A DNA stretch of 64,000 bases from Eledone cirrhosa. Lineage: Eukaryota. The stretch spans positions 299,336,001 to 299,400,000 of the forward strand of contig OZ024741.1 in assembly GCA_964016885.1 (NCBI GenBank). The letters are read 5' to 3'. Under the pieces are notes generated by a model. It ran no database searches. It was not told the DNA's origin and worked only from the letters and a program-made list of their open reading frames with translations. Below, one piece after another: positions 725-55,417 of the stretch (position 1 is the first letter of the stretch; the number at the start of each line of letters is the position of its first letter). The position numbers were made by a program, and so were the translations under genes.

Positions 725-860
725 ATACACACAGACACACATATATATATATATAATTAGAAATTAAAAATTATAAGCTTTCACCGTATTTCAGACTAAA
801 GACATTTCTAGCCTGATAGTGGGGTTAATAACCCTCGGAGAAATGGAAAAAGATGAGTGT

Positions 861-931
861 TGCCGTACATGGGAGTCGAACCAATATATTTGGTTATCCG
901 GACAACTGTGCTACCATTACACCAATACACA
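861..931 (-). ncRNA. tRNA-like sequence (copy in 291-bp unit)
   Basis: Reverse complement has A box TGGTGTAATGG and B box GGTTCGACTCC; several substitutions relative to the 1607 copy. Confidence 0.65.
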
Positions 932-1315
932 TCCCGTCTCCTTCCATTCGAATTAGAAGCTATGAACTTAGCAAGTGAATGATAAACAAGCAAATTATAA
1001 ATGTAAACATGTAAGTATGTTTTTGAAACGGTGCGCGAGTTTGAAAACTAGAAATTAGAAATTATAAGCTTTCACCGTATTTTAGACTAAAGAAATTTCT
1101 AGCCTGATAGTGGGGTTTATAACCCTCGGAGAAATGGAAAACGATGAGCGTTGCCGTACATGGGAGTCGAACCCACATCTTTGGTTATCCGGACCACTGT
1201 GATTCCATTAACATACCGTTTCAAAAACATACTTACATGTTTACATTTATAATTTGCTTGTTTATCATTCACTTGCTAAGTTCATAGCTTCTAATTCGAA
1301 TGGAAGGAGACGAGA

Positions 1316-1386
1316 TGTGTATTGGTGTAATGGTAGCACAGTGGTCCGGATAACCAAAGATGTGCGTTCGACTCCCATGTATGGCA
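1316..1386 (+). ncRNA. tRNA-like sequence (copy in 291-bp unit)
   Basis: A box TGGTGTAATGG, D stem GTGT/GCAC, T arm GTGCG-TTCGACT-CCCAT. Confidence 0.65.
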
Positions 1387-1606
1387 ACACTCATCTTTTT
1401 CCATTTCTCCGAGGGTTATAAAGCCCACTATCAGGCTAGAAATTTCTTTAGTCTAAAATACGGTGAAAGCTTATAATTTCTAATTTCTAATTTTCAAACT
1501 CGCGCACCGTTTCAAAAACATACTTACATGTTTACATTTATAATTTGCTTGTTTATCATTCACTTTCTAAGTTCATAGCTTCAAATTCGAAAGGAAGGAG
1601 ACGGGA

Positions 1607-1677
1607 TGTGTATTGGTGTAATGGTAGCACAGTGGTCCGGATAACCAACGATGTGGGTTCGACTCCCATGTACGGCA
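1607..1677 (+). ncRNA. tRNA-like cloverleaf (non-canonical, anticodon position GGA), followed by a T5 Pol III terminator
   Basis: D stem GTGT/GCAC; anticodon stem TGGT/ACCA with loop CCGGATA (C33 and T37 are non-canonical); T arm GTGGG-TTCGACT-CCCAT; acceptor only ~5 bp; TTTTT at 1687-1691. Confidence 0.7.
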
Positions 1678-1740
1678 ACACTCATCTTTTTCCATTTCTC
1701 CGAGGGTTATAAACCCCACTATCAGGCTAGAAATTTCTTT

Positions 1741-2979
1741 AGGAAGCAAGTGTTAGTGCCTCCTTAAGGAACGAACTGGCACGTATCCGGAACAAATGCA
1801 CCGACGCTAGAGACCGAGACACACACACCACACATTTCCTGGAAGTACTCAAACTGAACGGATACACGACATCCACCACAAACCGTGCCAGAAAGAACGG
1901 AGGACACCACACCCGAGGCACTAACACTTGCTTCCTGAAGCTCCCACACTTCAGTGAAGAAACAACAACAGCCATCCGCAGAGTTATCAGACGAGAGGGA
2001 CTAGATATCCAACTGGCCCACTCAGGTCCTTCTCTACGCAGACAGCTAACCAAAAGACACTCCACCAGACATGACAACTGCTGCAGACTAGCCAACTGCC
2101 CCATCAACTACACAGACCTGTGCCACCAGGCTTACCTCGTATACAGACTAGAGTGTGACAAATGCAGCAACTTCTACGTAGGTAGCACCACCAGACCACT
2201 TCACATAAGAATAAAAGAACACCTCAATACTAACGCTTCCTCATTTAAGAAACACCTAGTTAAATGCAAAAACACCGAAAAAACCATAACAGTTAGGATA
2301 GAAACCTCGGCAATCTTAGAATTAAGGAAGCACTAATTATAGATAAAACACAACCACCAATCAATAATAGACTAGAACTCAATATTTACCCCCCCACACA
2401 CACACACGCACACACACACACACGCGCTTACACCTCCACTTATTCTCTCTCACACATACACACACAAAACCAGTTCTAACACCAGATAACACCTATCCCC
2501 CACATTTACGAATAGACATATCTTCTCACACTCACACACACACACACTCACATACTTACACCTTCATGCATTCTCCCACACACTTAAACAGGCATGTATA
2601 AAAAAACAAAAAAAAAAAAACAAGAAAAAAAACAAAAAAAACAACAAACCCCTTTTAAAGGGAGACTACTCTTTATCCACCTAATTCTAACTCTTTGACA
2701 TTAGAGATAGAACAGATACTCTATACCATTTCCAGTCAGCATGACTTGGCAAGCTATTTAGAACACTGGTTTGAGACCTTTATTTCCCTCTGAAGAAGAG
2801 ATATTATCTCGAAAATTAAGGACTTTAAATAAATCTAAGGCAAAAGACTAATTGTCAACAATATCTTTTGCATTTGCATTCTTTATTCTATGTCCATACC
2901 TGCATTGTTTTGGCTTTATTATACATATACAAACGTTTATACCTCATTACACAATGCTTCAAGTGAACTATAACCTCCT

Positions 2980-2980
<1 letters not shown>
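1741..2980 (+). mobile_element. 5'-truncated Penelope-like element (RT thumb/linker + GIY-YIG endonuclease + 3' pseudo-LTR)
   Basis: Own translation from ~1742: ...LKLNGY...FLKLPHFSEE...CRLANCPINYTDLCHQAYLVYRLECDKCSNFYVGSTTRPLHIRIKEH; 3' region carries an HHR and ends at (TA)n; 3' end is homologous to 54965-55337. Confidence 0.88.
2787..2821 (+). ncRNA. minimal type I hammerhead ribozyme
   Basis: CCT-CTGAAGA-A-GAGAT(ATT)ATCTC-GAAA-AT-TA-AGG; stem I CCT/AGG; palindromic stem III AATT. Confidence 0.7.
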
Positions 2981-3035
<55 letters not shown>

Positions 3036-18847: not shown

Positions 18848-19458
18848 AATTGGCAGTGTCGGTAGAGGGTTGGACGTCATGCTTTCTAGTATAGTTACGT
18901 CCCTTTACAGTCTGAGTTCAAATCACGCCGAGGTTAACTTTGCCTTTCGGGGTCGATAAAATAAAGCACGAGTAATGCACTATGTTAATTACTGGCCTTG
19001 TGCCTAAAGTAGAAACAATCATTATTATTAGCAAGGCGTTGGGTTGGCAGTATCGGTAGAGGGTCGGACGCCATACTTATCAGCATAGAGTTACGGCCCT
19101 TTACGGTCTGAGTTCAAATCCCACCGAGGTTAACTTTGCCTTTCATCCTTATGGGGTCGATAAAATAAAGTACCAGTAATGCCTGGGATAATTGCTGGCC
19201 TTGTGCCAAAAGTAGAAACAATATATTATTATTATCATTATGAGCAGTGGATTGGCCATATCAGTAGAGTGCCGGACGCCATGCTTTGCAGCATGAAGTA
19301 ATGGCCTTTTTACGTTCTGAGTTCAAATCCCGCCGAGGTTAACTTTGCCTTTCATCGTTTCGAGGTCGATAAAATATAGTACCAGTCACACACAGGGTTC
19401 GATTTTATCGACTTTCTCCTCCCCCCAAATTACTGGCCCTGTGCCTATATAAGAAACC
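18848..19458 (+). mobile_element. three head-to-tail tRNA-derived SINEs
   Basis: Copies at ~18848-19022, 19035-19222 and 19245-19458, each with ttggcagtatcggtagag...gagttcaaatcc and an (ATT)n-like tail. Confidence 0.88.
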
Positions 19459-39098: not shown

Positions 39099-39168
<70 letters not shown>

Positions 39169-39409
39169 TATATATGCTACTGTACGTATGTATACATATA
39201 TGTATGTACGTATACATACATACTTACATTTAAGTAAGTGCCGTACTAAGAGTGAGAAATGAAATTTCGTTTCATTCTATTCCATTTATCGTTTTTTGTG
39301 CGCCTGGCCGACTGAACTCACTCGATATGCAAATTAGGCTACTCAGCCGTTAATTTTCATAAGGAAAGTATATACTTTCGGACGTTCAACTATCTGGCTG
39401 AAAGGTATA

Positions 39410-39450
39410 CGGTGCTGACGATAGCTAACAAGCTTGAAACTAGTATATCG
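39410..39450 (+). ncRNA. minimal type I hammerhead ribozyme
   Basis: CGGTG-CTGACGA-T-AGCT(AACA)AGCT-T-GAAA-CTAG-TA-TATCG. Confidence 0.8.
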
Positions 39451-39599
39451 TTCCTGTGTTAGTGTTGAACAAAAAGGTGACGTGGTTGCCTAAACACTGT
39501 ACGGCGTAAATCAGGCTGTTCGTTTGCTTACAAACGAACAAATCGAACATTATAATAAATGTTCGGTAACTGATACGTGCATATATATATGTGTGCCTG

Positions 39600-39650
<51 letters not shown>

Positions 39651-39884
39651 GCTACTGTACTTCTGTATACATATATGTATGTACATATACATACATACTT
39701 ATATTTAAGTAAGTGCCGTTCTAAGAGTGAGAAATGGAATTTCGTTTCATTCTATTCCATTTATCGTTTTCGGTGCGCCTGGCCGACTGAACTCACTCGA
39801 TATGCAAATTAGGCTGCTCAGCCGTTAATTTTCATAAGGAAAGTATATACTTTCGGACGTTCAACCATCTGGCAGAAAGGTATA

Positions 39885-39925
39885 CGGTGCTGACGATAGC
39901 TAACAAGCTTGAAACTAGTACATCG
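39885..39925 (+). ncRNA. minimal type I hammerhead ribozyme
   Basis: CGGTG-CTGACGA-T-AGCT(AACA)AGCT-T-GAAA-CTAG-TA-CATCG; GUA triplet; palindromic ACTAGT. Confidence 0.82.
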
Positions 39926-40263
39926 TTCCTGTGTCAGTGTTGAACAAAGAGGTGACGTGGTTGCCTAAACACTGTACGGCGTAAATCAGATTGTTCGTTT
40001 GTTTACAAACGAACAAAGCGAACATTATAATAAATGTTCGCTAAACTGATACGTGCATATATATATGTGTGCCTGTATATATATATATATGTATACATGC
40101 TACTGTACGTCTGTATACATATATGTATGTACGTATATATACATACTTACATTTAAGTAAGTGCCCTACTAAGAGTGAGAAATGAAATTTCGTTTCATTC
40201 TATTCCATTTATATATATATATATATATATGAGAAAAACCACAAACCCTCCATCTCAACTCTA

Positions 40264-54899: not shown

Positions 54900-54964
<65 letters not shown>

Positions 54965-54966
<2 letters not shown>

Positions 54967-55337
54967 TTTGTATTTGTAAAGCCAAAACAATGCAGGCATG
55001 GACATAGAATATAAATGCAAATGCAAAAGATATTGTTTACAATTAGTCTTTTACCTTAAATTTATTTAAATGTCCTTAATTTTCGAGATAATATCTCTTC
55101 TTCGGAGGGAAGTATAGCGGTTAAACCAGTGTTCTAAATAGCTTGCCAAACTATTTAGAACACTGGTTTAACCGCTTTACGGACATTTAAATAAATTTAA
55201 GGTAAAAGACTAATTGTCAACAATAACTTTTGCATTTGCATTTATATTCTATGTCCATACCTGCATTGCTTTGGGTTTACAAATACAAAAGTATATACCT
55301 CATTACACAATGCTTCAAGTGAACTATAACTTCCTCC
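54965..55337. mobile_element. inverted pair of PLE pseudo-LTR ends between (TA)n tracts (family of 1741-2980)
   Basis: Both arms match 2745-2980; the - arm keeps an HHR with a CCGAAGA core (55074-55108), while the + arm has lost it. Confidence 0.85.

Positions 55338-55417
<80 letters not shown>

Follow-up and report, generated by a model that had tools for sequence, protein, structure and literature searches.

A dispersed 291-bp repeat of Eledone cirrhosa with a tRNA-like module, no detected ribozyme and insertion ends that point to mobilisation by Penelope-like elements

Eledone cirrhosa harbours a family of 291-bp repeats that carry a tRNA-like module but no recognizable ribozyme and that, judging from the ends of their insertions, were very probably mobilised by the machinery of Penelope-like elements (PLEs). 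We consider it likely that the unit is copied by a PLE RT from one RNA, probably a unit-length circle and likely methylated by the host at A58. The finding resides in the repeat family and in the record preserved in its insertion ends, whereas the fusion of one copy with a PLE matters little. That copy is located in a 64,000-nt stretch of contig OZ024741.1 (assembly GCA_964016885.1, positions 299,336,001 to 299,400,000, forward strand), hereafter the window, to which all positions refer unless given in unit coordinates.

The repeat unit is 291 bp long, as originally predicted, with the reference unit at 1215-1505. The copy in the window consists of two partial tandems arranged head to head between (TA)n and a 5'-truncated PLE (Table 1). 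Its earlier description as tandem-inverted-tandem captured the minus and plus arms extending from (AT)n, but the layout is that of two head-to-head partial tandems; the start in (TA)n was correctly recognized, as the left (AT)n run abuts the minus arm. The outward end of the minus arm is the 'short' end of the family (unit 270/277), and the plus arm falls ~105 nt short of the usual tail end at unit 51. A58 is passed twice by each arm, and the minority allele 133C is found in all four units.

Table 1. Features of the repeat copy and the adjoining PLE in the window.
Feature	Position	Strand	Evidence
(AT)n target microsatellite, left flank	741-755	none	sequence
Inverted arm, 1.57 units, unit 277/278 to 114	756-1210 (start 755/756)	-	unit alignment
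tRNA-like module, A58 at 876	864-928	-	Rfam tRNA, 17.2 bits
5'-truncated tRNA-like module, A58 at 1167	1155-1210	-	Rfam tRNA, 16.2 bits
4-nt insert at head-to-head junction of the two arms	1211-1214	none	sequence
Forward arm, 1.81 units, unit 1 to 237	1215-1742	+	unit alignment
tRNA-like module, A58 at 1371, followed by T5 at 1396-1400	1316-1384	+	Rfam tRNA, 24 bits
tRNA-like module, A58 at 1662, followed by T5 at 1687-1691	1610-1674	+	Rfam tRNA, 31.4 bits
Inverted piece of PLE ORF, 22 nt, reverse complement of 1915-1936	1741-1762	-	comparison with other PLE copies
5'-truncated PLE: GIY-YIG endonuclease end of ORF and pLTR	1765-2981	+	Pfam GIY-YIG, E 1e-4
Minimal type I hammerhead motif in PLE pLTR (CUGAAGA core at 2790, GAAA at 2811)	2787-2821	+	motif scan; outside the repeat
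PLE 40-nt 'tail' between two fixed 3' ends	2942-2981	+	pLTR end positions
(TA)n target microsatellite, right flank	2982-3032	none	sequence

Several other repeats are present in the window. At 531-735 lies another element inserted head to head into (TA)n, which possesses a short end and a tail of ~79 nt and recurs close to many copies of the 291-bp unit; it contains a hammerhead-like 3' half (GAAAC...GUC) and is probably another PLE pLTR or retrozyme. A 257-nt segment between TA runs is found at 156-412, a weak match to which adjoins another PLE copy (L044). Tandem repeats with periods of ~196-209 (SINE-like sequence) and 475 (TA-embedded) are located at 18,849-19,386 and 39,125-40,212, respectively.

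A genome-wide search with the 291-bp unit returned 2,071 candidates. A 23-mer of the 291-bp subfamily has 1,527 exact matches genome-wide (control, 0) and a T-arm 17-mer common to the sister subfamilies has 2,404 (control, 0), both counts including the array described below. The unit is thus a multi-locus one, which removes the possibility, raised with the original prediction, that it is confined to a single site, and it is non-autonomous, as had been proposed, and has no ORF. The first 100 listed of the 1,527 matches, corresponding to 77 loci, all on C1, constitute the sample analysed below. Sister subfamilies have units of 259, 271 and ~247 nt, with identities of 83-93% among themselves and with the 291-bp unit. 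They have kept the D and T arms, the long stalk under the tRNA and T5. Also retained are a helix round the short end, in which a compensatory change is seen, and a short motif of TCGC type that follows each of the two ends at 5-10 nt. A small non-coding unit in dispersed tandem copies is what is expected of a retrozyme. The 271-nt subfamily also forms a ~10-unit tandem array (C4:61,009,648-61,012,411).

A much larger array of the 291-bp unit, ~276 kb in a single orientation and organised over part of its length into a higher-order repeat of 13 units, is located on C28 (~19,440,624-19,716,547) and was sampled (L059, L060, L178-L181, L185-L191) rather than read throughout. At its 5' end, which borders (TA)n, the array begins at unit 106, approximately where the tRNA starts; at its 3' end, which borders non-TA sequence, it terminates at unit 182, the first T of T5. 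Two array alleles, found in 259/276 and 262/276 array units, occur together in none of 190 dispersed units, and the array was rejected as the template of the sampled dispersed copies. The other subfamilies share the allele of the dispersed units at site 220, suggesting that the array is derived.

Some variation within the family probably has origins other than reverse transcription. The 8-nt palindrome at unit 225-232 (e.g. 1439-1446 in the window) is strongly prone to T>G change. This change, T230>G (20/195 units versus a 0.23% background, mostly discordant within insertions), was considered as an RT or ligation-site error; given that the mirror base of the palindrome is also raised, more weakly (A227>C, 7/196), it is read instead as a likely DNA-level mutation hot spot. 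Similarly, G127>T (10/83 units) was discarded as a dimethyl-G footprint, being confined to one haplotype background and concordant in 2/3 multi-unit loci, and is more likely a minor allele. At L058 (C3:113.82 Mb), a 5.4-unit arm shows an A-B-A-B pattern with two identical units, that is, local duplication after insertion.

The module in each unit has A/B-box-like arms, a short acceptor and T5 downstream, all as originally predicted, and a D arm that presumably resembles that of tRNA-Gln. Of the four copies in the window, only that at 1610-1674, predicted to sit on top of a long stalk, exceeds the gathering threshold of the Rfam tRNA model (29 bits). The internal cloverleaf that had been proposed is backed by the Rfam match and by the consensus fold of five subfamily monomers, a cloverleaf on a long stalk, but not by the minimum-free-energy fold of a single copy, which is not a cloverleaf and is no better than shuffles (z -1.33). 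In the same vein, the abnormal anticodon loop CCGGATA was correctly read in the window copy but represents a minority allele of the subfamily, C at unit 133 being found in 14/88 units. The module does not appear to be a functional tRNA gene: ARAGORN called no tRNA in the window repeat, the acceptor is short and the anticodon loop differs among subfamilies.

No ribozyme family was matched by Rfam in the unit, although the same search overlooked the minimal hammerhead of the adjacent PLE, and no hammerhead core (CUGANGA or its swapped form) is conserved on either strand across the five subfamily monomers. Both results agree with the lack of a canonical hammerhead stated in the original prediction. 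A hidden hammerhead at unit 232-262, including a version in which stem II encloses the tRNA, was rejected, its core not being kept across subfamilies. The two functions that had been offered for the tRNA fold instead fared less well. A role as a simple Pol III promoter is hard to reconcile with the position of T5, which is 3' of the tRNA and 5' of both RT start sites: were Pol III to terminate at T5 (unit 182-186), neither start site would be included in the RNA; read-through, or transcription by Pol II, would then be required, and we found no promoter capable of reading through T5. As for an RNase P processing site, the 5' ends of the insertions show no pile-up there.

PLE-mediated mobilisation is indicated by the 3' ends of the insertions. 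Of 129 arms at the 77 loci, 91 end at exactly one of three positions, unit 51 (60 arms), 277 (23) or 270 (8). Overlapping duplicate loci, arms below 88% identity and 8 arms with non-standard 3' ends were left out of the analysis. Two-armed insertions are present at 41 of the 77 loci and, in all 41, one tail-class end (37-54) is paired with one short-class end (246-279), the tail between the two fixed ends measuring 65-72 nt. The outer flanks are TA-rich in 135/154 cases in the same sample. Partial tandem and inverted 5'-truncated arms, two fixed 3' ends and a (TA)n target are together what mobilisation by a PLE is expected to leave, and the adjacent PLE family follows the same rule of one tail and one short end, with a 40-nt tail. 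Tandem and inverted arrangements with a one-sided tail have been described for PLE insertions (PMC8557442, in part), and an in vitro study (PMC11167929, in part) reports two internal RT start sites and extension of both target strands, which accounts for the one-sided tail. Two such start sites would explain why the repeat has two fixed ends, one of each per pair. Fold-back of the first cDNA was rejected as the general origin of the short arm, since several short arms outreach their partners, among them those at L003, L004, L144, L153, L165 and L166.

The 5'-truncated PLE of the window belongs to a family with the hallmarks of PLEs. A PLE search of the genome yielded 18,496 candidates, and the full-length relatives of the window element encode an intact ~860-aa ORF with RT and C-terminal GIY-YIG domains; to these are added the pLTR with its hammerhead motif, which was not detected by Rfam at 2787-2821, and the tail. 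In this family, two sites separated by 40 nt (-12 and +28/29 relative to the ATG) account for 32/36 pLTR ends, and the six loci with both outward ends at fixed sites have one of each in all cases. BLAST of the 291-bp unit against full-length copies of this adjacent family gave no match. The PLE endonuclease carries a CCHH-like pattern, which the accessible text of PMC8557442 describes as lacking in Hydra. Head-to-head pLTR pieces of the same family at 54,959-55,342 of the window form a seventh pair, with one tail end and one non-standard end. At L053 and L054 (C4:233.39 Mb; C2:200.83 Mb), near-identical full-length PLEs with intact ~860-aa ORFs are arranged in tandem and head to head and, by their sequences, appear to form a very young subfamily.

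Whereas the 3' ends of the repeat resemble those of PLEs, its 5' ends point to the tRNA-like module; neither the two fixed 3' ends nor the stop described here had been noted in the original prediction. The 5' ends of 44/121 arms fall at unit 158-165, a 23-fold hazard, next to A58 (unit 157), and the edge is hard: five arms end exactly at 158 and a single one within 143-157. Given that the 14 other AT/TA starts at unit 166-245 account for 4 stops altogether and that 16/27 single-armed copies stop at the hot spot, TA microhomology alone is insufficient to explain the 158-165 stop. A second cluster of 5' ends, at unit 128-136 in the anticodon arm, comprises 8/42 arm passes, part of which may reflect TA microhomology. 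Conversely, 33/34 arm passes continue beyond the tRNA 5' end, so that the alternative in which copies start at that end, as in an ordinary SINE, does not hold; together with the internal 3' ends, this confirms the prediction that the repeat is not such an element, the tRNA being internal and a SINE tail missing.

Whether an arm stops beside A58 varies with the pass and with its partner. On the first pass, 43/81 arms stop there, as opposed to 3/24 on later passes (p=4e-4), the later-pass set being pooled from the unbiased 77-locus sample and 26 top-hit loci; L020 and L058 were left out of the pass counts because of post-insertion duplication. The difference is not accounted for by the site-31 haplotype (p=0.24). 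Where both arms of a pair reach 165, both stop in 7 cases, both pass in 10 and one pair is mixed (17/18 concordant, p=2.5e-4). Subfamily alleles are likewise concordant within insertions, at site 31 in 36/38 pairs and at site 97 in 17/17, compared with ~50% expected. It is fairly probable that one molecule was read repeatedly, or that the template was a circle; the 18/121 arms longer than one unit and the rarity of later-pass stops lend support to the circular or multimeric template originally proposed. Repair could nevertheless couple the two arms, given the short palindromes at unit 162-168: near-symmetric junctions were seen in 11/34 simple two-armed insertions, with 3 at other palindromes, and palindromic junctions are a known feature of PLEs (PMC3846280, in part). 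Divergence within insertions (3.7-4.2%) is close to that between insertions (4.3%), indicating that post-insertion decay dominates.

The nature of the block is suggested by its position. In the accessible text of 10.1101/202747, m1A is described as truncating cDNA, and T-loop motifs of the GUUCRA type in long RNAs as targets of methylation by TRMT6/61A; we think it likely that methylation is what blocks the RT at A58. Genome-wide, 54 substitutions are found at A58, compared with 23 (p=5e-4) and 35 (p=0.056) at two control adenines, but the share of T among these substitutions equals that of the A163 control and a mismatch at A58 is present in only 1/102 read-through units (unit 262-281 being left out of the mismatch counts). 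Misincorporation at A58 is thus weak and counts against the methylation reading. When a subfamily devoid of A58 was sought as a control, 54 scattered variants were found but no subfamily with such a pattern.

Considering these observations, we infer that the PLE RT and endonuclease act in trans on the tRNA-bearing strand, that one molecule, probably a circle, serves as template for both arms and for successive units, and that m1A58 probably forms the block. The PLE endonuclease would cut the (TA)n target, whereupon RNA of the tRNA strand would be reverse-transcribed from both DNA ends, with priming at the 'tail' site (unit ~51) for one and at the 'short' site (unit ~270/277) for the other, and the two cDNAs would be joined head to head. 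With A58 methylated, both arms would stop at 158 and be trimmed by a few nt to microhomology; with A58 unmethylated, the RT could circle the template more than once, giving rise to partial tandems. Our best guess for the formation of the circle, based on general knowledge, is that RNase P or Z might cleave beside the tRNA, with the conserved stalk splinting the ends and a host ligase joining them. A more far-reaching picture, in which the repeat is a ribozyme-less retrozyme, a parasitic circle that combines a tRNA mimic with host tRNA processing, is copied repeatedly round by a PLE RT dimer into the two ends of a single break and leaves the m1A58 state of every individual template molecule recorded in the genome, is tentative and, in our estimation, more doubtful than the preceding one.

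Other readings of the insertion ends differ in what they make of the template. If a linear monomer were cut in the T loop, its 5' end would coincide with the 158 edge, so that arms copied from linear templates would stop at 158-165, ligated circles would be read through and PLE-mediated mobilisation would proceed without any need for methylation. This would explain the hard edge, the concordance of paired arms and the low hazard on later passes equally well, and the near absence of misincorporation at A58 even speaks for it; we nevertheless regard it as unlikely, since no ribozyme was found for cleavage at this point and the edge coincides exactly with the RT-stop position of m1A58 in a GUUCRA T loop (10.1101/202747, in part). 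Somewhat less probable still appears a template without a circle, either a linear multimer transcribed from tandem copies or an array, or like monomers connected by RT template jumping. Autonomous PLEs do occur, and are transcribed, as tandems (PMC11167929, in part), L054 contains three PLEs in a row and the ~276-kb array of the unit exists; furthermore, a multimer with one shared modification state, or RT jumping between like monomers, would also fit the data. However, the array haplotype is absent from the dispersed units, independent modification of each unit predicts ~50% stops at each pass rather than the proportion observed on later passes, and 5' ends show no fixed pile-up except at A58 and the smaller one at 128-136. 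By contrast, that the repeat is an ordinary tRNA-derived SINE or satellite, its tandem and inverted forms resulting from DNA repair, is very improbable: the A/B-box-like arms, T5 and the satellite-like array are in its favour, but there are no starts at the tRNA 5' end and no tail, whereas the two internal fixed 3' ends, the invariable pairing of tail and short ends and the arms exceeding one unit all contradict it.

The fusion with the PLE is a one-off event, incidental to the family. The join had been placed at 1740/1741 without a spacer; instead, comparison with other PLE copies reveals that 22 nt of the PLE ORF in inverted orientation, and then 2 additional nt, precede the colinear PLE, which starts at 1765. 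The repeat arm reaches 1742, 2 nt being common to it and the inverted piece, and across the join the end of the repeat agrees with the inverted PLE at 5/6 nt, the mismatch keeping the base of the repeat. A 21-mer spanning the join has one match in the 3.0-Gb genome with one mismatch allowed, and PLE-fused arms are found neither in the other 76-77 sampled loci nor in 25 top-hit loci. None of the public contigs examined bridges 1742-1765; such contigs, the source runs of which may be the assembly's own sample, contain inversions joined near unit 158-175 as well as ends at unit 51, 270 and 277 that adjoin TA sequence.

The join had been taken as evidence of template switching, for which a single event genome-wide is ill suited, a later PLE insertion fitting at least as well. 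We lean slightly towards the latter, an insertion of the PLE at the TA run of the repeat with loss of ~105 nt: the retention of the repeat's base in the near-match is as expected if repeat DNA primed on PLE RNA, which slightly favours later insertion over one-step switching. Somewhat less probable is a single event in which the RT copied PLE RNA, snapped back, producing the inverted piece, and switched to repeat RNA at unit 237. In its favour, the composite retains a short end contributed by the repeat and a tail end contributed by the PLE, the 105 nt lacking from the repeat are absent 3' of the PLE, and the two parts are about equally diverged, by ~2% (21/983 in the repeat and 10/536 in the PLE within the window), although equal divergence fits co-insertion as well as two close events. 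Yet this scenario needs two extra switches and does not sit easily with the primed pattern at the join or with the absence of other fused arms. It bears solely on the junction and does not conflict with the explanation preferred for the family.

Among the openly accessible papers listed by full-text searches, we found no description of a tRNA-bearing, ribozyme-free PLE passenger or of genomic truncation at A58 in one. The stop beside A58 is a built-in marker of the template strand, pointing to the tRNA-bearing one, which argues against the antisense self-priming raised in PMC3846280 (in part). From the same marker it can be told whether two arms, or successive units, derive from the same molecule, making the PLE mechanism directly testable. 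With tRNA-derived SINEs, the repeat shares the A/B boxes, but it has no 5' tRNA head, 3' tail or fixed 5' start, and its copies are circularly permuted partial tandems with inversions.

Among known systems, a tandem unit with an internal module of Pol III type is also seen in the SINE-like hammerhead elements of schistosomes, Sm-alpha and Sj-alpha. The schistosome elements, as described in the accessible text of PMC6765202, share this module with the 291-bp unit but carry an active hammerhead that frees monomers, whereas the 291-bp unit has none and T5 directly follows its tRNA. Non-autonomous PLEs of Chlamys, such as MRC1, are similar in forming multicopy head-to-tail insertions with a microsatellite bias, and the canonical hammerhead is mostly absent from their clade (PMC8557442, in part). 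However, they share 3' sequence with their autonomous partner, whereas none was found in common between the 291-bp unit and the adjacent PLE, and the accessible text of PMC8557442 mentions no tRNA module such as that of our repeat. PLEs with a C-terminal EN, for instance Poseidon PAc, display two internal RT starts, a one-sided tail, extension of both target strands and AT-rich targets, all as in the present family, but the 291-bp unit has no ORF and its tail is 65-72 nt rather than 30-40 nt (PMC11167929, in part).

The closest resemblance is to the non-LTR retrozymes of animals, non-coding units of similar size that occur as partial tandems, monomers and long arrays, with described circles of ~170-400 nt and a proposed mobilisation by PLEs via circular RNA (PMC7229834; 10.64898/2026.07.22.740005; both in part). 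In the accessible text of these two studies, the link between retrozymes and PLEs is argued from co-occurrence, shared hammerheads and pLTR homology, whereas here the insertion ends themselves were analysed. Unlike non-LTR retrozymes, the 291-bp family has no detected type I hammerhead in any subfamily and no detected homology to a pLTR, but carries a tRNA module instead, suggesting that elements of this sort can dispense with the hammerhead and that a tRNA mimic can replace it.
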